Assembly (NCBI GenBank): GCA_965283655.1 | Contig: CBDIPJ010000001.1 | Span: forward strand, 114,987-178,986 | From: Limisphaerales bacterium | GTDB taxonomy: Bacteria; Verrucomicrobiota; Verrucomicrobiia; Limisphaerales; UBA9464 | Length of the DNA: 64,000 nucleotides | Direction: 5' to 3' | In this document: positions 6,637-60,056 of the stretch, piece after piece | Layout of the letters: each line of letters starts with the position of its first letter | How positions within the stretch are numbered: the first letter of the stretch is position 1 | Notes under the pieces: model-generated | The model's database searches: none | What the model was told of the DNA's origin: nothing | Seen by the model: the letters and a program-made list of their open reading frames with translations, nothing else | Made by a program: the position numbers and the translations under genes

Positions 6637-6861
6637 ATGAACACACGCCTCCAGCAACAACAGTCCGCCCAGGCCAGCCACTCCCAGCAGTCGGAAACTC
6701 GCCAGGTGGGATCGTTCGAGAACGCCGAGGACGCCCTCCGCGCCGATCGCAACCAGACCACCGTCCCCAACAGCCTCGGCGATCGCATCGCGGAATCCCT
6801 CGCCAGCGAACCCCAGCCCGCCGCACCCAAGAGTTGGTGGCAACGGCTCTTCGGCAGCTGA
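6637..6861 (+). CDS. small hypothetical protein downstream of the ECF sigma factor
   Basis: 74-aa ORF starting 5 nt after the sigma stop. Gln/Ser-rich with no TM segment. Position suggests co-transcription; function unknown. Confidence 0.35.
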   Translation: MNTRLQQQQSAQASHSQQSETRQVGSFENAEDALRADRNQTTVPNSLGDRIAESLASEPQPAAPKSWWQRLFGS

Positions 6862-6970
6862 CATCAAGCATCCAGCCCGGGCACCCCGCGCACACGAGGG
6901 GAATCATCGCGGAGTGCCCGGTGGATCACAGGCCCGGCCAAGAGGGAAAACCGGGCCCGAAAGCATTACC

Positions 6971-7148
6971 CTAGAAACGGCAGTTCATTGAACCGCAGAT
7001 GCCGCCGATTCCGCAGATGGAGGGGCAGAAATGCCAGCACCCAAGGCTCGTGCAGACGTCACCTTGCGGGTGAAGGGCGCGCCCGATCCAAGCTGCTGAC
7101 TCTCTGCGTCATCTGCGATCATCTGCGGTTCCAACTGCTGCTTTCAGG
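6971..7148 (+). repeat. ~170-nt structured element, copy 1 (candidate ncRNA or MITE)
   Basis: About 97% identical to copy 2. Closing inverted repeats AACCGCAGATG (6991-7001) / CATCTGCGGTT (7120-7130), and CGCAGATG / CATCTGCG nested inside. GNRA hairpin GGCA-GAAA-TGCC (7024-7035). Confidence 0.7.
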
Positions 7149-7154
7149 ATTACC

Positions 7155-7940
7155 TCACCCAGGCCTAGGACGCGGCGGCAACACGGGGCGCGCCACAGGT
7201 GCGGGTGGAGTCGTGGAATGGGTTCCACTGGATGCCACCCCCGCAGGGGACGCGTTTCCTCCCCCACCCCGAGGCGGCGGAGCCGGCGCCGATTCATGCG
7301 CGCTGCTCCATTTCCAATCCCGCGGGCGTCGGCAAAGTCCCGCATTCACTGCCCGGAACTCCACATTCCGGATCCGCCGCATCACCTCCGCCTCATCCTC
7401 GAGCGCCCGCAGATACGGCACCCGCTCCCACAATTCCACCGCACCGCGGTCGAGCGCGAGGTTCACCTGACTTGTCGTGTACGAGCGCCATTCCCGGACC
7501 ACCGCGCCTGCATCGACCCCTTCCGCTGTCGTGAAGATCACCTGCAGGTGGTTGGGCAGCACCGACCACGCCCGCAGCGTATACCGTCTTCCGTGACCCG
7601 CCTGCAGCGCTGATTGCACCAGCCGGGCCACCTGCTCATCCCGCAACCAACAGTCCCCGTGACCCGCGTTCAGTTCAGCTTCGATCCGTTGGGCAATCCG
7701 ACGACGCAGGGCCGCTTCATCCCCGCCGTCGGTCCGGTTGGCTTCTTCCTCCTCCGACCGCAACCGCGTCACCAACTCGGCCGGCATCGCATCCGTCAAC
7801 CGGAACACCGCCCAGTAGGTGGAGACGGGACTGACAGGTGTCGCCGGGTTGCTTCCGGATGCGGGCGCGGGCGGCAGCACGGGCGGGCGTCCAGGCGGAG
7901 GTCGATTGGCGGATCCTTTGGGAGAAGGCGTTGTCTGCAT
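7155..7940 (-). CDS. divergent Y1 (IS200/RAYT-like, COG1943-type) transposase homolog
   Basis: Core pattern YWAVFRLTD..., GRRYTLRAWSVLPNHLQVIF, ELWERVPYLRAL, VNAGLCRRPRDWKWSSA matches REP-associated tyrosine transposases. The HUH position reads H-L-Q. Single gene with no IS ends. Confidence 0.6.
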   Translation of the reverse strand: MQTTPSPKGSANRPPPGRPPVLPPAPASGSNPATPVSPVSTYWAVFRLTDAMPAELVTRLRSEEEEANRTDGGDEAALRRRIAQRIEAELNAGHGDCWLRDEQVARLVQSALQAGHGRRYTLRAWSVLPNHLQVIFTTAEGVDAGAVVREWRSYTTSQVNLALDRGAVELWERVPYLRALEDEAEVMRRIRNVEFRAVNAGLCRRPRDWKWSSAHESAPAPPPRGGGGNASPAGVASSGTHSTTPPAPVARPVLPPRPRPG

Positions 7941-8008
7941 GCGTTGATGTCGCCTGCTACAACTTCCACCTCCGGAAGGTTACCGACGCGTTCAAAGATT
8001 TTTCCCTC

Positions 8009-29199: not shown

Positions 29200-29264
29200 C
29201 ACAAAACACGCTTTAGGCTGCGGCCAACCAAGCAGCCGTCCGCCGAAAGGCGGTCCCCCAACCA

Positions 29265-29300
29265 ACGCCCGGGAGTCTCCTCTCCCGGGCGTCTTTTTTT
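29265..29300 (+). terminator. rho-independent terminator of the giant adhesin gene
   Basis: ACGCCCGGGAG-tctcct-CTCCCGGGCGT followed by CTTTTTTT. Preceded by a small GNRA hairpin CCGCC-GAAA-GGCGG (29240-29253). Confidence 0.8.
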
Positions 29301-29302
29301 GT

Positions 29303-29502
29303 AAGTCCCCAGTTCCCAGCTCCCAGACGTAGCAGTCGACGTCAGGAGGCTGTGGAAGGAGTGCCAAGTTCGAAGTTTCAAGCCAACGTAGCAGTCGACG
29401 TCAGGAGGCTGTTCAACTGCCAACTCCCAACTGCCAACTCCCTTGAAGGCCGCGTGCCCCCACGCACATGGCTTGAAACTTGAAACTGAAAACTTCGAAC
29501 TC
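29303..29502. repeat. mosaic repeat region (2x REP-C, REP-B, heptad modules)
   Basis: REP-C at 29329-29352 and 29388-29411. (AACTGCC AACTCCC)x2 at 29413-29442. REP-B-like 29444-29467. CTTGAAACTTGAAACTGAAAACTTCGAACTC at 29471-29502. Confidence 0.85.
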
Positions 29503-29532
29503 GCGCCCCACTACCGTCACACTCCTCCACAC

Positions 29533-32514
29533 TTGAAGCTGTCCGCACAAAGCACCCTGTGGTCCCTCGCCGCCCATCCGGATCGCGCGCGCCACGTGTA
29601 CACGGAGCTCCAGCACCATCCCGCCTCCGCCTCCTTCCTCGCATCGATCCCTCCCAGATCGGCCGAAGCCCTCATCCGTGTCGCCGGCGGCTCCCGCCAC
29701 CTCGCCGCCCGCCTGCTCCGTGAACCCGGCTGGGTTCCCATCTGCTTCGCTCCTTCCGCGCTGTCCCAGCCGCGCCGGTTCGACAGCCTCCGTCTGGAGG
29801 CCGCCGCATTCCTCGATGACGCCATCCACCGCGCCGATCACGCCGCCGCACTACGCTCCCTCCGACGTTTCCGGGAACGGGAATCCCTGCGCATCGCCGC
29901 ACGCGATCTCGCCGGATTCACCGACGTCGAGACCCTCACCCGCGAACTCTCCGATCTCGCCGATGTCTGCCTCGCCGGGGTCCTCCGCATCGTCCGCGCC
30001 CAACTCGCTTCACGCATGGGCGAACCCTGGCATCAGGGGCCCGATGGTCGCTGGACCCCGACGCCCTTCTGCGTCCTCGGCCTCGGCAAGCTCGGCGGAC
30101 AGGAACTGAACTACAGCTCCGATGTCGACCTGCTCTTCGTGTACGGCGATGAAGGTCACGTCTTCCGGTCCCCGCCCACCGCCCGAACCACGCCACCTTC
30201 CGGAGGCGTCGCCAGCCACGCCTTCTTCCGACGTCTCGCCGAAGCCTTCACCACCGAAGTCGCCCAAGCCTCGCCCGACGGTCAACTCTACCGCGTCGAC
30301 CTCCGCCTCCGTCCCGAAGGCGATGCGGGCCCGCTCGCACGATCCCTCGACGCCTACGAATCCTACTATTCCGAATGGGGCCAGACCTGGGAGCGCCTCA
30401 TGCTCCTCAAGGCCCGCCCCCTCGCAGGCGATCGCCAGCTCGGCGCCGAGTTCCTCGAAACCATCCAGTCGTTCCGCTATCCCAGGTCACTCTCCGAAGG
30501 CCTGCTCGACGAAATCGCCGCCACCAAGACCCGCCTGGAAACCGAGGCCATCCAGGGCGATGCGGAACGCGATGTGAAACGCGGCCGTGGCGGCATCCGC
30601 GAAATCGAATTCATCACCCAGTCCCTTCAACTCCTCAACGCGGGCCGCCAACCCTTCCTTCAGGGAGGTTCCACCCTTCCCTCCCTCGCCAAGCTCGCCG
30701 AGTACTCCCTCCTCTCAGCCACCGAAGCGACCCAACTCGCCGAAAGCTACCGGTTCTGGCGCGACGTGGAACACCGTCTCCAGATGGAGGACAACCTCCA
30801 GACCCACACGCTTCCCACGGACGCTCCAGCCCTCGCACGGATCGCCCACCTCATGGGCTGCGGCTCCGTCAACGACTTCGAATCCAGACGCACCCTCCAC
30901 GCCTCCCGCGTCCGTTCCATCTATGACAAGTTCCTGGGAACGCGCACTCCGGCCGACCCAGCCCCACACCTCCCACCCACCGCCCGAACCCACGAATCCG
31001 ACTGGCTGCGGCTCCTCACCCGTCACGGCTTCCGGGATCCCGCCGACGGCGTCCGCAGGATCCGCGAATTCATCGAGGGACCTGGATGGTCCCACGTCTC
31101 CCGACGGACCGGGGACCTCGGCCGGGCCCTGCTTCCCCACTTCCTCTCCATCTGCCCCGGAAGCCCCTTCCAACGCCCAGCCTCCAGCCGCATCCACAGC
31201 GTCCTTTCCGATCCCGACCGCGTCCTCACCCGACTCGATCGTTTCATCCAGGCCTACGGCAGCCGGTCCACCCTCTACGAGGCGTGGTCCGCAACGCCGC
31301 CATTCTTCGAATTGCTGCTGTGGCTCTTCGACCGTTCCGAGGCCCTCGGAGAAGTCGCCATCCGCACTCCCGATCTCGTCGAGGAAATCGTTCAGGGCGC
31401 ACACCTCCGCCGACAGCGCTCCGTCGACGAAACCCTCGCCGACCTGCGGCATGGGCGCACCGACACCGATCAGACGCTATGGCTCCGACGCTACCAACAG
31501 GCCGAACAGCTGCGCATCGGCCTGCGAAGCCTGCTCGACCTGGCCGATCCCACCCAGACCCACGCCGAGCTGACAACCCTTGCCGAAGCATCCATCCGCT
31601 ATGCCCTCGAGATCATCCAGCACCGACACCGCCTGAAGTCCGCCCCGTTCGCTGTCATCGGTCTCGGTCGGCTCGGTGGCGCCGAACTCACCTTCGGCTC
31701 CGACCTCGACCTGCTCTTCGTCACTCAGGACCGGCAGCGGGACCTGCCGCGGATCATTCGTTACGCCACGGAGTTCATCGCCCTGCTTTCCGCCTCCACC
31801 GAGATCGGGGCCGCCTACGACATCGATACCCGACTCCGTCCGGACGGCGAAAAGGGACTGCTCGTCAACACCATCGCCGCGCATGCGGACTACTACCGCC
31901 GCCGCGCACGACTCTGGGAAATCCAGGCCCTGCTCCGTGCACGCCCGATTGCGGGCGACCCGACCACCGCCTCCCGTTTCATGGCGCTCCCAGACACCTT
32001 CTGCCGCTTCCACCTTCCACAACCTGACCTCGCCGCCTGGCATCCCGACTGGGAGTCCGACATCGACGCCATGCGACAACGCATCCATCGCGAGCGCACC
32101 ACGCCGGGTACCGAGGACCTCGCCTTCAAGACCGGAGAGGGCGGCATCATCGCCGCGGAATTCCTCGCCCAGAAATGGAGCCTTGCCGACGGCCACCCCG
32201 AACCCAATACCCGGACCGCATTGGCCCGGGAATCGCCGCCGGCCGGCTCGCCCCGGACCAGGGTTCTGCCCTCCTTCAATCCTTCGACCAACTCCGCCGC
32301 ATCGAACTCATCCTGCGGCGATGGAGCTGTCAGCCCGAGTCCCTGCTCCCTGCCGATCCCGCCGCCCTCGACCGCGTCGCCATCCGCTGCGGACTGCCAT
32401 CCGGCGCCGAACTCCTGGCCACCGTCCGACAGTCCCGAGCCGTCATCCACCAGGCCTGCTCGCCCCGTAGCTGACGAGGGCCGGGAGGAGTCTCCAGATT
32501 CCGACGGTAGCTGA
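29533..32514 (+). CDS. glnE: glutamine synthetase adenylyltransferase/adenylyl-removing enzyme, 3' end frameshifted
   Basis: Two nucleotidyltransferase cores (FCVLGLGKLGGQELNYSSDVDLLFVY; FAVIGLGRLGGAELTFGSDLDLLFV). TTG at 29533 is the first start downstream of repeat sequence. The authentic C-terminus continues in another frame to 32474. Confidence 0.85.
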   Translation: MKLSAQSTLWSLAAHPDRARHVYTELQHHPASASFLASIPPRSAEALIRVAGGSRHLAARLLREPGWVPICFAPSALSQPRRFDSLRLEAAAFLDDAIHRADHAAALRSLRRFRERESLRIAARDLAGFTDVETLTRELSDLADVCLAGVLRIVRAQLASRMGEPWHQGPDGRWTPTPFCVLGLGKLGGQELNYSSDVDLLFVYGDEGHVFRSPPTARTTPPSGGVASHAFFRRLAEAFTTEVAQASPDGQLYRVDLRLRPEGDAGPLARSLDAYESYYSEWGQTWERLMLLKARPLAGDRQLGAEFLETIQSFRYPRSLSEGLLDEIAATKTRLETEAIQGDAERDVKRGRGGIREIEFITQSLQLLNAGRQPFLQGGSTLPSLAKLAEYSLLSATEATQLAESYRFWRDVEHRLQMEDNLQTHTLPTDAPALARIAHLMGCGSVNDFESRRTLHASRVRSIYDKFLGTRTPADPAPHLPPTARTHESDWLRLLTRHGFRDPADGVRRIREFIEGPGWSHVSRRTGDLGRALLPHFLSICPGSPFQRPASSRIHSVLSDPDRVLTRLDRFIQAYGSRSTLYEAWSATPPFFELLLWLFDRSEALGEVAIRTPDLVEEIVQGAHLRRQRSVDETLADLRHGRTDTDQTLWLRRYQQAEQLRIGLRSLLDLADPTQTHAELTTLAEASIRYALEIIQHRHRLKSAPFAVIGLGRLGGAELTFGSDLDLLFVTQDRQRDLPRIIRYATEFIALLSASTEIGAAYDIDTRLRPDGEKGLLVNTIAAHADYYRRRARLWEIQALLRARPIAGDPTTASRFMALPDTFCRFHLPQPDLAAWHPDWESDIDAMRQRIHRERTTPGTEDLAFKTGEGGIIAAEFLAQKWSLADGHPEPNTRTALARESPPAGSPRTRVLPSFNPSTNSAASNSSCGDGAVSPSPCSLPIPPPSTASPSAADCHPAPNSWPPSDSPEPSSTRPARPVADEGREESPDSDGS

Positions 32515-32839
32515 CGAGGTCACGAGGCAGTGGAAGGAGAGTCCCAGGTTTTCAGTCTCAAGTTCCAGGCCGACCTCACACGTGAAACTCCCCGCTGGCA
32601 GGACGGGCTCAGACGTGTGCAACGAATCCCAACGGGATTCTGGCACCCAGCCCAGAAGGGTTGCCGAGCTTGCGAGGCTACCCTGGGTTACAAGCCTCAA
32701 CGCCCTTGGCGTTGCAAACACAGCGTCATGGCGCCGCCGTTCAAACCCGAATCTCCTCCCCCTTGCAGGCCGGGTGCCCCACCCGGCGCAACTCACTGGC
32801 TGGCTTCAAACTTGAATCTTCAAACTTGAAACTCGGATC
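32467..32839. repeat. mosaic repeat region downstream of glnE
   Basis: REP-C type-B-like units at 32467 and 32507-32532, heptad module 32533-32570, hairpin-dense GC unit 32590-32715, REP-B 32764-32788, heptad module 32795-32836. Confidence 0.75.
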
Positions 32840-33927: not shown

Positions 33928-34112
33928 GTAGCAGTCGACGTCAGGAGGCTAGGGCGGGGGAGAGTTCCCAGTTCCAAGATCTGAAGGCCGGGTGCCCCCA
34001 CCCGGCGGACTTCGAAAGTCCCAGTCTGAAGCTTGAATCCCTTCCCCACTCGTAGCAGTCGACGTCAGGAGGCTGTGGATGAATCTTGAAACTGAAAACT
34101 TCGAACTCCCCG
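33928..34112. repeat. mosaic repeat region (2x REP-C, REP-B, heptad modules)
   Basis: REP-C 33928-33951 and 34052-34075, REP-B 33982-34007, CTTGAAACTGAAAACTTCGAACTCCCCGAACTCCC 34085-34119. Confidence 0.85.
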
Positions 34113-34844: not shown

Positions 34845-35165
34845 GAAGTTTGAAGTTTGAAGATTCAAGTTTGAAGCCTGGTAACTCCCCCCTTGAAGGC
34901 CGGGTGCCCCCACCCGGCGCATCCCAGTCTCCGCCGGGTGAGGGCACCCGGCCTTCAACCACCTTACTTGAAACTTGAAACTGAAAACTCGGAACTCCCC
35001 GCTGTAGGCCGCGTGCCCCCACGCGGCGCAATTTCCAGTTCTGGAAACTGGAATCTGGCCACTGGGAACTCCCACCCGGCCTTCAACCACGGATCTGGCA
35101 TCTGGCAACTGGCATCTGGCATCTGGCAACTTACTTGAAACTTGAAACTGAAATCTTGAACCTCC
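34845..35165. repeat. densest mosaic region (4 REP-B, at least 5 heptad modules)
   Basis: REP-B 34893-34919 (+), 34932-34958 (-), 35003-35028 (+, GTAGG head), truncated 35073-35086 (-). Heptad arrays include (ATCTGGC/AACTGGC)x5 at 35091-35131. Confidence 0.85.
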
Positions 35166-39140: not shown

Positions 39141-39194
39141 CCCCCATCCTGTACCGACCCCAAATCCCAAGGACATCCCCAATCTGAGTTCCCT

Positions 39195-39600
39195 TGTAGG
39201 CCGCGTGCCCCCACGCGGCGCATCTTCCCGAACATGCGTCCCGCGCCCGCCCTCGCCGCAACGCGGCGCACGGCGAAAGCCCGGGGTGGAGCGGAGCGGA
39301 ACCCTGGGTCACCCCACCCCAACGATACCTCGCCCCAACGGGGCGAACGGTGACCACATGCACCCTGTCCCGTGTGCCCTTTCAGGGCACGGAGGACGTT
39401 GTGTGGCTTGGTCCCCGGGGTTCCACCCCGGGCTTTCACCGGTTGCCCCTTCGGGGCAGGCAACTCGGAACTGGAGTCTGGGAACTGGGTGCTGGATCCG
39501 CCGGGTGAGGGCACCCGGCCTTCAATCGGGAATCCCCCTCCCCCTTGAAACTTGAAACTGAAATCTTCCAACTCGCTTTCAAACTTGAAACTCCCCACCC
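39195..39600. repeat. mosaic repeat region upstream of two divergent genes
   Basis: REP-B 39195-39220 (GTAGG head) and 39499-39525 (-). Hairpin-dense GC unit 39270-39460 (GTGCCCT-ttc-AGGGCAC; TGCCCC-TTCG-GGGCA). Heptad modules 39545-39598. Confidence 0.75.
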
Positions 39601-41119: not shown

Positions 41120-41215
41120 AATCAGGAAATCAGAATGCCGTCCCCGTGGTTTTCAGGGGGGCGGGTTTCTCTCCGACCCGACGCCATTCCGCAAGCATCC
41201 GCATCAACGAAGAAG

Positions 41216-41500
41216 GTAGCAGCCAACGTCAGGAGGCTGTCGGAGAGTTCGGAGTTTGAAGATTCAAGTTTGAAGCCCATCACCACTGCCTCGTGACCTC
41301 GTCAGCTACCCTCCGCGACGTAGCAGACGACGTCAGGAGGCTGGAGTAGGAGCCGCAAGTTTGAAGTTTCAAGACTCAAGCTCCCAAGCGTAGCAGACGA
41401 CGTCAGGAGGCTGAGGTCTGTCTTGAAACTTGAATCTGAAAACTTCGAACTCCGCCCCGAACTCCGTCCCCCCCTTGAATCTTCACTCTCCAAACTCCAG
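41216..41500. repeat. mosaic repeat region (REP-C A/B' unit + 2 further REP-C + heptad modules)
   Basis: REP-C 41216-41239, inverted type B 41284-41309, REP-C 41320-41343 and 41390-41413, heptad modules 41240-41280 and 41422-41455. 41216-41319 is about 88% identical to the 104-bp unit at 47255. Confidence 0.85.
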
Positions 41501-43699: not shown

Positions 43700-43815
43700 C
43701 CTCGGAGCCGTGGCTCCAGGTGCGGAGCACCGGCAGATGATAGCCCACAGCGTCAGCTGTGGGTTTGGCTCCTAAACGGCTACAAGCCCCGGAGGGGCGA
43801 CAGATCCGGGGCTGC
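43700..43815. repeat. hairpin-dense GC-rich unit
   Basis: GGAGCC-gt-GGCTCC (43704-43717), CCCACAGC-GTCA-GCTGTGGG (43744-43763), AGCCCCGGA-11 nt-TCCGGGGCT (43785-43813). Confidence 0.5.
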
Positions 43816-47183: not shown

Positions 47184-47580
47184 TGAAGGCCGGGTGCCCC
47201 CACCTGGCGCAGCCAAAATTCCCAGCCCATGACGTAGCACTCGACGTCAGAGGGGTAGCAGACGACGTCAGGAGGCTGTGGAAGGGAGTTCGAAGTTTGA
47301 AGCCAAGTTTGAAGCCCATCACCACTGCCTCGTGACCTCGTCAGCTACCTTCCATGACGTAGCAGACGACGTCAGGAGGCTGTGGAAGGGAGTTCGAAGT
47401 TTGAAGCCAAGTTTGAAGCCCATCACCACTGCCTCGTGACCTCGTCAGCTACCTTCCATGACGTAGCAGACGACGTCAGGAGGCTGTGGATCAGGTCCCC
47501 GTTTCCCGGAATCCGCCGGGTGAGGGCACCCGGCCTTCAAACCAGAGGCCAAACTTGAAACGGAAAACTTCGAACTCTTC
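47184..47580. repeat. mosaic repeat region between larE and the pseudopilin gene
   Basis: REP-B 47184-47209 (+) and 47514-47540 (-), degenerate REP-C 47234, the 104-bp tandem array, heptad module 47551-47578. Confidence 0.85.
47255..47488 (+). repeat. perfect 104-bp tandem repeat, 2.25 copies: [REP-C type A]-42 nt-[inverted REP-C type B]-10 nt
   Basis: Units 47255-47358 and 47359-47462 are identical by eye. A third REP-C type A lies at 47463-47488. Confidence 0.9.
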
Positions 47581-58326: not shown

Positions 58327-59214
58327 TCACCCTCGGAGCACATTCCAACCCGCCGCCTGGCAACGGCTCAACGCGCGCGCCGGATCCCGCGTTGCGAGAT
58401 AATTCGGAGGCAACCACTGCGGAAGCGTCGAACGTTCGTCCGGAGGCGTCAGCTTCGGTCCGCGAAACGAGCGGCCAATGAAGAACAGCGTGTATCCCGC
58501 ATCCAGCAGGATCCGTGTGGTCTCGGTCGGTGGAGTTCCATGCTCCTCGAACACGATGTCCCGGAACGTCCCATCCGTCAGCATCGACCCCGCTCCCTTC
58601 AAGACCGCTGGCTCATGCCCTTCGGTATCGATCTTCACCACACCGAACTTCCGCCCCCCGGGAACCAACCGTTCCAGACGGTCTGTCTGCACCCGGTGAC
58701 TGCTTCCACTCCCTGTTTGCTCAAGACTCGCCGAGCCCGCGTTGTTGTCGAAACTCTCCGGCTCGTACAGTTCCGCCTCACCGGCCTTGTCGCTGGCCGC
58801 AACCGGGATCAGCCGGATCTTCGCCATCGGAATCCCCATCCGCACCCACTCGCCCACATGCCGCGCCAACTCGGCATGAATCCGCGGATGCGGCTCCAGC
58901 GAGAACACTTCGCCGGAAGGACCCGCCCGACGCGCCAACAAACCGGAAAACACCCCGATGTTCGCGCCGACATCAATCGCGGTCTCGCCCGGTTCCAACA
59001 ACCGCCAGGCCACCTCGCACGCTGCCAGGTCCAACACCCCGAGGTGGTACATCGCATGCCCCACCGTCTCCGTGGGGCGGACCCGCATCGGCAGCCCCCA
59101 GGGACTCACGACTTCGGCAACCTCGGGCAGAGGGCCGCGCCGAAGGATTCGGCGCAACATCTGACCCGGCTGGTACCAATACTCCGGCTTCGCAATGCGT
59201 TCGATGATGCTCAT
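58327..59214 (-). CDS. FkbM-family methyltransferase
   Basis: AIDVGANIGVFSGLLA (SAM-binding) and VVKIDTEGHEPAVLKGA motifs. Confidence 0.8.
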   Translation of the reverse strand: MSIIERIAKPEYWYQPGQMLRRILRRGPLPEVAEVVSPWGLPMRVRPTETVGHAMYHLGVLDLAACEVAWRLLEPGETAIDVGANIGVFSGLLARRAGPSGEVFSLEPHPRIHAELARHVGEWVRMGIPMAKIRLIPVAASDKAGEAELYEPESFDNNAGSASLEQTGSGSSHRVQTDRLERLVPGGRKFGVVKIDTEGHEPAVLKGAGSMLTDGTFRDIVFEEHGTPPTETTRILLDAGYTLFFIGRSFRGPKLTPPDERSTLPQWLPPNYLATRDPARALSRCQAAGWNVLRG

Positions 59215-59359
59215 GGATGGGCTGACGCCCTGCAAAGCCTCCCATGCGCCCTCGCAGCCGTCGATATCCGGCTTGGGGCCTATCCCCTCCCAAAACACAC
59301 CCCTTTACCAATCCCGCAAATTCGGGAAGTTTCACCCCAACATCCAGCCCTTACCACCC

Positions 59360-59937
59360 ATGTCCGACGTCTATTCCGAAAACGAGTATCTGATCCGGCG
59401 CAAGGTCTTCACCCTTTTTGGCGCCCAGTTCCACGTCTTCAACCCTGCCGGCGAGGTCGTCATGTTCAGCAGGCAGAAAGCCTTCAAGCTCCGCGAGGAC
59501 ATCCGCATCTACACCGATGTCTCCGAGTCCCACGAGCGGATGCTCATCAAGGCCCGCCAGATCATCGACTTCAGCGCCGCCTACGACGTCTTCGATTCCG
59601 AATCCGGCACCAAGGTCGGATGCCTCCGACGCAAGGGCTGGTCCTCTCTCGTCCGGGACAACTGGGAACTCCTCGACCCCCACGACCAATCCATCGGCGT
59701 CATCAAGGAGGACAGCATGATGCTGGCCCTGTTCCGCCGCCTCCTCACCAACCTCATCCCCCAGGCCTTCTCCGTCACCGTCGGCGGCCAGCCCATCGCC
59801 CACTTCCGACAGAACTTCAATCCCTTCGTCTTCAAGCTCCGCGTCGAACTCCTTCCCGAGTCCCGCTCCGTCGTCCCCCCCAACTCCTCCTCGCCGCCGC
59901 CATCCTCCTCTCCGCCATCGAGGGAAGGCAGGCGTGA
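59360..59937 (+). pseudogene. LURP-one-related/scramblase-like (DUF567) protein, 3' end frameshifted
   Basis: YLIRRKVFTLFGAQFHVFNPAGEVVMFSRQKAFKLREDIRIY fits the family. After C-run 59875-59881 the conserved-looking tail (...QLLLAAAILLSAIEGRQA*) is in another frame and stops at 59937. Confidence 0.65.
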
Positions 59938-59953
59938 ACCCACCCTTCCAAGG

Positions 59954-59977
59954 GTAGCAGCGGACGTCAGGACGCTG
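59954..59977 (+). repeat. REP-C variant with a flipped 9/20 base pair
   Basis: GTAGCAGCGGACGTCAGGACGCTG. Confidence 0.6.
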
Positions 59978-60056
59978 GGCTCCCTCCCCTCGCATCCGCA
60001 AGATCTCCAAAATCTGTAGATGACCCAACCACCGCGTTCAGGGTAACCCACCCTGC

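Follow-up and report, generated by a model that had tools for sequence, protein, structure and literature searches.

REP-C, a structure-constrained hairpin repeat of Verrucomicrobiota with sequence features of GTAG REPs and a candidate cognate RAYT family

The window, which is the whole 64-kb stretch of DNA that was analysed, contains 15 full copies and two remnants of a short repeat, GTAGCWGNCGASGTCASGAGGCWG, designated REP-C, for which 0 copies were expected from dinucleotide shuffles. A covariance model run with the filters off detected exactly 15 copies with scores of 34.5 to 42.4 bits, while the rest of the window did not exceed 13.7 bits. The GTAG head is present in all 15 of them. The copies are located in intergenic regions or at the ends of ORFs, and several follow directly after a gene or fall into a likely 5' leader. 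A 3' extension, TGGAAGG, is common to the window copies, which are clonal and represent only about five distinct sequences. Most of them belong to two types, A and B, arranged as follows (positions in the repeat are numbered 1 to 24):

29329 to 29352, + strand: type A with T at position 8; exact pattern match, 41.5 bits (model R1)
29388 to 29411, + strand: type A with T at position 8; direct repeat of the 29329 copy, 59 nt apart; pattern and covariance model
32467 to 32483, + strand: remnant, cut off, reading GTAGCTGACGAGG and then unrelated sequence; 13.7 bits, alignment to the related contig L184
32507 to 32530, + strand: type B; pattern and covariance model
33928 to 33951, + strand: type A with G24 changed to A, pair 5/24 broken; pattern and covariance model
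34052 to 34075, + strand: type A; pattern and covariance model
41216 to 41239, + strand: variant GTAGCAGCCAACGTCAGGAGGCTG, in which C8 pairs with G21 and G10 is changed to A; 34.5 bits
41286 to 41343, both strands: head-to-head heterodimer of type B (41286-41309, - strand), a 10-nt spacer and type A (41320-41343, + strand)
41390 to 41413, + strand: type A; pattern and covariance model
47234 to 47254, + strand: degenerate remnant GTAGCACTCGACGTCAGAGGG, adjoining the array; 11.3 bits
47255 to 47490, both strands: BIME-like tandem array with a period of 104 nt, 2.3 copies, 100% identical (Tandem Repeats Finder)
59954 to 59977, + strand: variant GTAGCAGCGGACGTCAGGACGCTG, in which 8/21 is C-G and 9/20 is flipped to G-C; 38.4 bits

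The copies at 29329 and 29388 are identical 24-mers, GTAGCAGTCGACGTCAGGAGGCTG, in the reading of 29200-29560, and the first begins 27 nt past an intrinsic-terminator-like site at 29265-29302. They form one direct pair of REP-C copies; another is 33928/34052. At 32507, the internal TGA of the type B copy serves as the stop codon of a glnE-like ORF (29443-32514), and the 59954 variant sits within the 3' end of ORF 59195-60019. Each unit of the array consists of type A on the + strand, a 46-nt spacer, type B on the - strand and a 10-nt spacer. Type A starts at 47255, 47359 and 47463; type B starts at 47325 and 47429 and occupies 47325-47348 and 47429-47452 on the - strand.

An earlier note on this DNA had listed type A copies at 29329, 29388, 33928, 34052, 41320, 41390, 47255, 47359 and 47463, all on the + strand, and these sites were all recovered by pattern search. 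The type B copies given there exist as well, and the one at 32507 on the + strand was placed exactly, but the minus-strand coordinates were 2 nt too low and are corrected here to 41286, 47325 and 47429. Every copy on that list is real; the variant at 41216 and the remnants at 32467-32483 and 47234-47254 had been missed.

Orthologous metagenome contigs from relatives (L184, L185 and L186), which are about 85-93% identical to the window, revealed that two window sites occupied by REP-C are empty elsewhere. The copies at 33928 and 34052 are absent from the orthologous PALP-sigma70 intergenic region of L184 and L185, and the whole cluster at 41209-41457, comprising four REP-C copies, spacers and the CTTGAATCTGAAAACTTCGAACTC motif, is reduced to 12 nt in L186. 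The type B copy at 32507 is also absent from L184 and L185. At the 3' end of glnE, an intact copy, GTAGCCAACGAGGTCACGAGGCGG, is found in L184 where the window has the remnant at 32467. The copies at 33928 and 34052 and the cluster at 41209-41457 are thus polymorphic by insertion or deletion between related genomes, a feature of GTAG-type REP systems.

Beyond the window, the exact REP-C motif occurs in at least 103 stretches when one genome per species is considered. The 80 listed loci of the genome scan represent at least 48 assemblies. Of these 80 loci, about 70 are labelled Verrucomicrobiota and include Opitutae, Limisphaerales, Verrucomicrobiales, Pedosphaera and Chthoniobacteraceae; the remaining ones, about 10 of 80, are MAGs bearing other labels, as deposited. 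Identical 24-mers are common to many species. The sequences flanking REP-C in other genomes are random save for a weak preference at -1 and +1, and because the flanks are not conserved, the 24-mer was taken as the repeat unit.

Types A and B had been described as differing at exactly four positions, 6, 12, 17 and 23, with the pair 6/23 changing from A-T to T-A and the pair 12/17 from C-G to G-C, and this is what the aligned copies show. The third variant, at 59954, likewise has the pair 9/20 flipped and 8/21 made C-G, as claimed. Since the window copies are nearly clonal, other genomes were examined for the hairpin. They were scanned, one genome per species, with the pattern GTAGCNGNCGANGTCANGAGGCNG, in which the variable positions were left free. 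The free positions turned out to be coordinated: the pair 6/23 is C-G, A-T, T-A or G-C, and the pair 12/17 is C-G, G-C or A-T, with recurrent G.G. When stem positions were relaxed in the genome search, G-C, T-A and A-T were also found at 5/24. Among 43 distinct copies outside the window, 91.6% of the cells are paired and four of five pairs, namely 5/24, 6/23, 9/20 and 12/17, covary with double changes. The covariation of these 43 copies was reached in 0 of 500 shuffles.

A further set was assembled blind to pairing by collecting GTAG-N8-GTNA-N8 sequences within 260 bp of RAYT genes, which yielded 112 distinct sequences. Double compensatory changes are present at all eight stem positions of this set, and C-G, G-C, A-T and T-A are found at every position. 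The covariation score of the 112 sequences was 0.568, compared to 0.151 +/- 0.013 after shuffling and at most 0.128 when the partners were slid. In 56 of the 112 sequences, the tandem G.A/A.G (10/19, 11/18) is replaced by G-C, A-T, T-A or C-G. Whether the step is of the G.A or the Watson-Crick type is mostly uniform per locus, with about 16 of the 80 loci also holding another type. The loop in the RAYT-proximal copies reads GTAA, GTGA, GTCA or GTTA.

From these data the proposed hairpin could be refined. Position 8/21 had been left outside the paired stem in types A and B; it is C-G in most of the REP-C family, and the stem therefore counts eight positions. The tandem G.A/A.G that had been proposed is present in half of the 112 sequences, but the other half has Watson-Crick pairs in its place. 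The proposed GTCA tetraloop is correct for the window, but the loop of the family is GTNA and not strictly GTCA. The main suggestion, that the hairpin is kept by selection, is borne out by the covariation at all eight stem positions in the 112 pairing-blind, RAYT-proximal copies together with that in the 43 outside copies. Independent variation of paired positions in larger alignments had been named as the observation that would speak against it; in the alignments obtained here, the variation is coordinated. The REP-C 24-mer is a real, structure-constrained hairpin.

Folding energies gave a more differentiated picture. With RNA parameters, the family consensus GTAGCCGCCGACGTCAGGAGGCGG adopts exactly the proposed fold on the GTAG strand (-11.0 kcal/mol, 93% of the ensemble, z -2.8), and in its complement the outer stem alone forms. 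With DNA parameters, just the outer 5 bp of the consensus are predicted. Types A and B of the window have A.G or T.G at 8/21, and by nearest-neighbour calculation their 24-mers are no better than shuffles (-1.0/-1.3 kcal/mol as DNA, -2.3/-3.9 kcal/mol as RNA). As the A and B units of the window are not predicted to be stable, the structural case for REP-C rests on covariation, not on energy. The outer stem of the 59954 variant has -4.5 kcal/mol as DNA. For a dimer equivalent to the B/A dimer at 41286-41343, a single long, imperfect hairpin is predicted (-16.9 kcal/mol, z -5.6), and its mismatches coincide exactly with the four flipped positions. In DNA, sheared G.A pairs stabilise hairpins rich in G.A as well as loops of the GNNA type. 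The complement of REP-C would carry tandem C.T/T.C mismatches, and the structure is therefore predicted to be confined to the GTAG strand only.

For the identification of a cognate enzyme, an E. coli RAYT sequence was used in tblastn searches, where it served as a probe only. Matches were obtained to an ORF in locus L015 that adjoins REP-C copies and to ORF 7155-7940 of the window. The L015 protein contains the sequences PDHFHLIW and CFYTLANPVR, matches NCBIfam REP_Tyr_transpos with an E value of 9.5e-14, and has E. coli TnpA_REP (4ER8) as its sole PDB match. REP-C variants flank its gene on both sides. At E <= 1e-5, the RAYT family to which it belongs comprises 1902 homologues, many of which bear the JGI name 'REP element-mobilizing transposase RayT'; the named NCBI homologues are verrucomicrobial. 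In an alignment of 21 RAYTs, both His residues of the HUH motif, the catalytic Tyr and N-P are invariant (PDHLHL, CFYTLANPVR). The family matches NCBIfam NF047646 (REP_Tyr_transpos) with E values of 1e-14 to 1e-17 and 57-63 bits, which is under the 80-bit equivalog cut-off, and the family profile retrieved from PDB only TnpA_REP 4ER8 (E 6e-10), not the TnpA proteins of IS608 or ISDra2. Neither the RAYT-like ORFs nor the family gave a significant match to Pfam including Y1_Tnp. Because Pfam Y1_Tnp was not significant and the NCBIfam scores are below the cut-off, these proteins are regarded as a divergent RAYT branch.

The association between repeat and enzyme was determined in 80 metagenomic loci encoding a RAYT of the cognate family. 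REP-C-like 24-mers with at most three mismatches are present within 220 bp of the RAYT gene in 57 of the 80 loci, and both flanks of the gene carry such copies in 35 of 63. Their density is 170 per 32 kb beside RAYT genes versus 32 per 190 kb farther off, a difference of about 30-fold. Hairpins of the form GTAG-N8-GTNA-N8 within 260 bp of RAYT genes number 276 in 38 kb versus about 5 expected and are found in 78 of the 80 loci, which supports the relation to REP and RAYT that had been suspected from the window. Both searches beyond the window were made with the GTAG head as a requirement; a few REP-C copies near RAYT genes are headed GTGG, GGAG or TTAG. With the REPtron anatomy of these loci and the covariation of their repeats, the question of structure is settled. 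No RAYT of the cognate family is encoded within the 64-kb window.

One of the homologues, P0058 from an NCBI verrucomicrobial MAG, has an in-frame insertion of 44 residues at alignment columns of about 160-203. The insertion encodes a REP-C dimer (…VAAEVTRR…SASSRRRLQ…) and represents an intragenic REP in the element's own enzyme.

ORF 7155-7940 of the window (- strand) specifies a protein of 261 aa with Pro-rich ends that matches REP_Tyr_transpos (E 1e-14) and 4ER8 (E 8.5e-5). Its HUH motif reads HLQ (NHLQV), and both Tyr residues of the catalytic segment are replaced. As a partner of REP-C it was rejected, the blastp E value to the cognate family being 0.05, the HUH motif degenerate and the catalytic Tyr absent, and the covariance-model scan of the window detected no full REP-C copy flanking it. 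Since it is degenerate, unrelated at the blastp level and not flanked by REP-C, ORF 7155-7940 is a poor candidate for REP-C binding. It is flanked instead by a 14-nt inverted repeat with 86% complementarity, GCAGCTGACATCAA / TTGATGTCGCCTGC (6851-6867, 7944-7961), and may derive from a TIR-type tyrosine transposase by decay or domestication. The outer end of this inverted repeat reads GTAGCAGGCGACATCAA and resembles the 5' half of REP-C. Another inverted repeat, 12 nt long and perfect, GAACCGCAGATG / CATCTGCGGTTC at 6990-7001 / 7120-7131, adjoins the ORF on its downstream side, and duplicated CCGCAGATG words are also present.

The earlier note could not assign the hairpin to any known element; it fits a known kind, the GTAG-tagged REP. 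Such REPs are present in many phyla, and a verrucomicrobium, Opitutus terrae, has been described as 'highly enriched in GTAG repeats' (PMC3733652). Subfamilies with alternative complementary stem residues, head-to-head and tail-to-tail homo- and heterodimers, intragenic copies and REPtrons have all been reported for them (PMC3733652), and GTAG-dependent binding and cleavage of single-stranded REPs has been shown, for the E. coli enzyme TnpA_REP only (PMC3479197, PMC8266576). REP-C was compared to the GTAG REP/RAYT systems E. coli REP-TnpA_REP, Pseudomonas GTAG-1, Stenotrophomonas SMAG and O. terrae GTAG-17 to GTAG-20 (PMC3733652, PMC2817692, PMC3479197). It shares with them the 5' GTAG head followed by a short imperfect hairpin (24 nt in total), the high number of mostly intergenic copies, the subfamilies with alternative complementary stem bases, and the head-to-head and tail-to-tail homo- and heterodimers. 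As in REPtrons, the RAYT gene is bracketed by REP-C hairpins in other genomes, and as in TnpA_REP, the RAYT has an HUH motif and a catalytic Tyr, in addition to its match to TnpA_REP itself. In contrast to known GTAG REPs, the REP-C stem has a conserved tandem G.A/A.G, which is Watson-Crick paired in sister lineages, and the loop is GTNA. REP classes of Pseudomonas and Stenotrophomonas have been analysed within species complexes (PMC3686654); unlike these, one 24-nt REP-C architecture spans dozens of species from several verrucomicrobial orders. In the text and supplements of PMC3733652, the REP-C consensus did not turn up, and peptides encoded by REP-C (for example VADDVRRL, PPDV) gave only unrelated R. 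baltica matches.

Similarities extend to two other systems. As in E. coli BIMEs with their Y and Z REPs, two REP-C subtypes alternate in orientation at 47255-47490, with spacers of 46 and 10 nt, and the partners differ in the stem, which is why the long inter-REP hairpin is mismatched. The dimer at 41286-41343 represents one isolated unit of this kind. Unlike in BIMEs, the REP-C subtypes differ by two flipped pairs and not by loop length, no IHF or gyrase sites are in evidence, and the spacers consist of low-complexity GTTYGAAG-like sequence. With the subterminal hairpins of IS200/IS605 elements and their TnpA, REP-C has in common the pairing of an HUH/Tyr enzyme with strand-specific imperfect DNA hairpins and an orientation that is biased relative to strand composition; in contrast to these elements, no transposase lies between the dispersed REP-C copies. 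Judged by sequence, REP-C shows every feature by which the GTAG REP class is recognised, and it appears to be a GTAG-type REP family for which a cognate RAYT clade has been identified. Particular to it are the tandem G.A step exchanged with Watson-Crick pairs, the GTNA loop and the breadth of its distribution.

Taken together, REP-C is very probably a GTAG-tagged REP family, the predicted ssDNA substrate of a conserved verrucomicrobial RAYT, that has spread as singles, dimers and arrays. The unit consists of the 5' GTAG head, a stem of eight positions and a GTNA tetraloop, and in the subfamily of the window the stem positions 6-7 form a tandem G.A/A.G step in place of Watson-Crick pairs. The hairpin is likely to be the ssDNA recognition and cleavage substrate of an HUH/Tyr RAYT related to E. 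coli TnpA_REP, whose own gene is bracketed by REP-C hairpins. In intergenic DNA, REP-C spreads and persists in the form of single copies, of dimers joined head-to-head or tail-to-tail, and of BIME-like arrays. In heterodimers, type A is combined with type B; owing to the flipped pairs, each local hairpin stays intact, and four mismatches arise in the long inter-REP hairpin. Binding and cleavage of REP-C by the RAYT, action on ssDNA and effects on host expression are inferred.

Alternatively, REP-C might primarily be an RNA element, a transcribed hairpin, GNRA-like in its loop and with tandem G.A pairs, whose role would be to stabilise or regulate mRNAs or to bind a protein, with the link to RAYT being secondary. 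Among the classical RNA motifs are tandem G.A pairs and loops of the GUAA or GUGA type. The consensus, as outlined above, folds as proposed with RNA parameters at -11 kcal/mol and z -2.8, and the position of several window copies just past genes or in likely 5' leaders would also be compatible with a function in transcripts. Effects of REPs on mRNA stability have been reported in other bacteria (PMC3733652). Several observations speak against it. The copies show no clear bias relative to transcription: in co-directional intergenic regions, 36 sense and 24 antisense copies were counted, based on crude gene calls by GC3, and by the same calls REP-C is also located in convergent and divergent regions; within arrays, both strands are used. 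In Rfam 15, no family overlapped any REP-C copy at the gathering score, and for the array just chance miRNA-hairpin matches far under the threshold were obtained. There is no U-run after the hairpin, copies are missing at orthologous sites of close relatives, and the tight clustering around RAYT genes is left unexplained. A primary role as RNA is therefore considered improbable.

Known RNA classes were also inspected individually. An intrinsic terminator was rejected, as no T-run follows any window copy and the terminator-like hairpin at 29265-29302 is separate and upstream of the first copy. The same applies to a kink-turn: the arms are equal without a 3-nt bulge in gap-free alignments, and Watson-Crick pairs can take the place of the G.A step.

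A stronger bias was detected relative to strand composition. Single copies are located on the C-rich strand in 40 cases versus 13 on the other (p 3e-4), and where |skew| exceeds 0.1 the ratio is 24 versus 4. In the window, the GC skew of the + strand is -0.14 to -0.23 in every 8-kb window, though genes are present on both strands, and all unpaired REP-C copies are on +. The C-rich strand is by convention the leading-strand template. On this convention, the favoured strand would not be the one predicted by a simple 'lagging-strand-template ssDNA' model. The strand bias, the lack of an Rfam match at the gathering score and the HUH enzyme favour a process at the DNA level that is linked to replication, and side effects at the RNA level are possible alongside. 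A |skew| of 0.14-0.20 was also noted in several loci of the verrucomicrobial MAG Ja1_bin-3224.

Symmetric covariation alone fits a hairpin and a two-fold duplex site alike, and REP-C could accordingly be read as a palindromic dsDNA site of a dimeric regulator or nucleoid protein, the mirror positions covarying as half-sites. E. coli BIMEs are known to bind IHF and gyrase. Protein binding is also mentioned in PMC2817692. Yet the G.A/A.G step and the GTNA loop break the duplex symmetry in a strand-specific manner, the GTAG head is one-sided, and the free turnover of stem identity at every position would not be expected for base-specific half-sites. As the copies in addition flank the gene of an ssDNA-type HUH enzyme, such a site is highly improbable. 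Least credible of all is that REP-C is a fragment of a single longer repeat, amplified recently and free of structural constraint, since the 100% identity of the 104-nt array, the few sequence types in the window with their shared 3' TGGAAGG extension and the weak folding are opposed by the conservation of only the 24-mer across other genomes, where the flanks are random, and by covariation throughout the stem, seen in hundreds of independent copies that represent dozens of species.

A wider scenario can be drawn up, which we put forward tentatively and consider rather doubtful as a whole: one REP-RAYT pair may have persisted across much of Verrucomicrobiota with its architecture fixed, the switches between G.A and Watson-Crick pairs may track RAYT lineages as a specificity code, and the 3:1 bias for the C-rich strand may reflect replication-coupled gain or loss. 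To our knowledge, RAYT-REP recognition and the spread of REPs are poorly understood, and nearly all experiments concern one E. coli enzyme. REP-C offers a natural dataset of about 1900 RAYT homologues and hundreds of distinct cognate hairpins with complete turnover of the stem, along with a tandem G.A step that is on or off and clear presence/absence polymorphisms between close relatives. Rules of recognition and effects of the replication strand could be derived from this dataset and then be tested in vitro. For annotation, REP-C explains many short conserved 'motifs', small in-frame protein insertions and assembly breaks in verrucomicrobial MAGs.

Other repeats are interspersed with REP-C in the window. 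A second hairpin family, GGCCGGGTGCCC[CT]CACCCGGC, is represented by 15 window copies versus 0.02 expected, and a 24-nt motif, CTTGAAACTGAAAACTTCGAACTC, by seven copies versus 0 expected:

19994, 20056, 23125, 33986, 34898, 34933, 35007, 36380, 39199, 39500, 47188, 47515, 50818, 50854 and 58204: copies of the second hairpin family
19953 (- strand); 29479, 34085, 34974, 39551, 41429 and 47554 (+ strand): copies of the motif CTTGAAACTGAAAACTTCGAACTC

The second family has a compensatory variant of its own (GGCCGCGTG...CACGCGGC). In L184, one of its copies reads tGTAGGCCGGGTG... and is headed by GTAG, and in the window GAAG precedes the copy at 33986. Two inverted copies of this family, 47188 (+) and 47515 (-), bracket the REP-C array. 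The motif CTTGAAACTGAAAACTTCGAACTC is mostly located 30-130 nt upstream of genes on the + strand, and four of its copies follow immediately after a REP-C copy. The motif is absent together with REP-C at both polymorphic sites in the relatives and is present in other verrucomicrobial loci as well. Its role may be that of a promoter or leader element, or it may belong to a composite mobile unit.

Low-complexity, AT-richer stretches of short degenerate repeats are found at 29414-29442, 32804-32830 and 34845-34876 and in the spacers between REP-C copies. They are built from words such as CAACTGCCAACTCC (twice), CTTCAAACTTGAAT (twice), GAAGTTT (4.6 times) and GTTCGAAGTTTGAAG-like runs, and the relatives carry similar words at equivalent positions in the opposite orientation (GGAAACTGGAATCC). 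An Acido-Lenti-1 sRNA match was detected at 43718-43763 on the - strand with 48.3 bits (gathering score 37), and a second, sub-threshold one at 39414-39458 on the + strand with 31.2 bits. The surrounding stretch, 39189-39488, is 84-90% identical to stretches in the verrucomicrobial loci L077, L039 and L087, which is unusually conserved for non-coding DNA.
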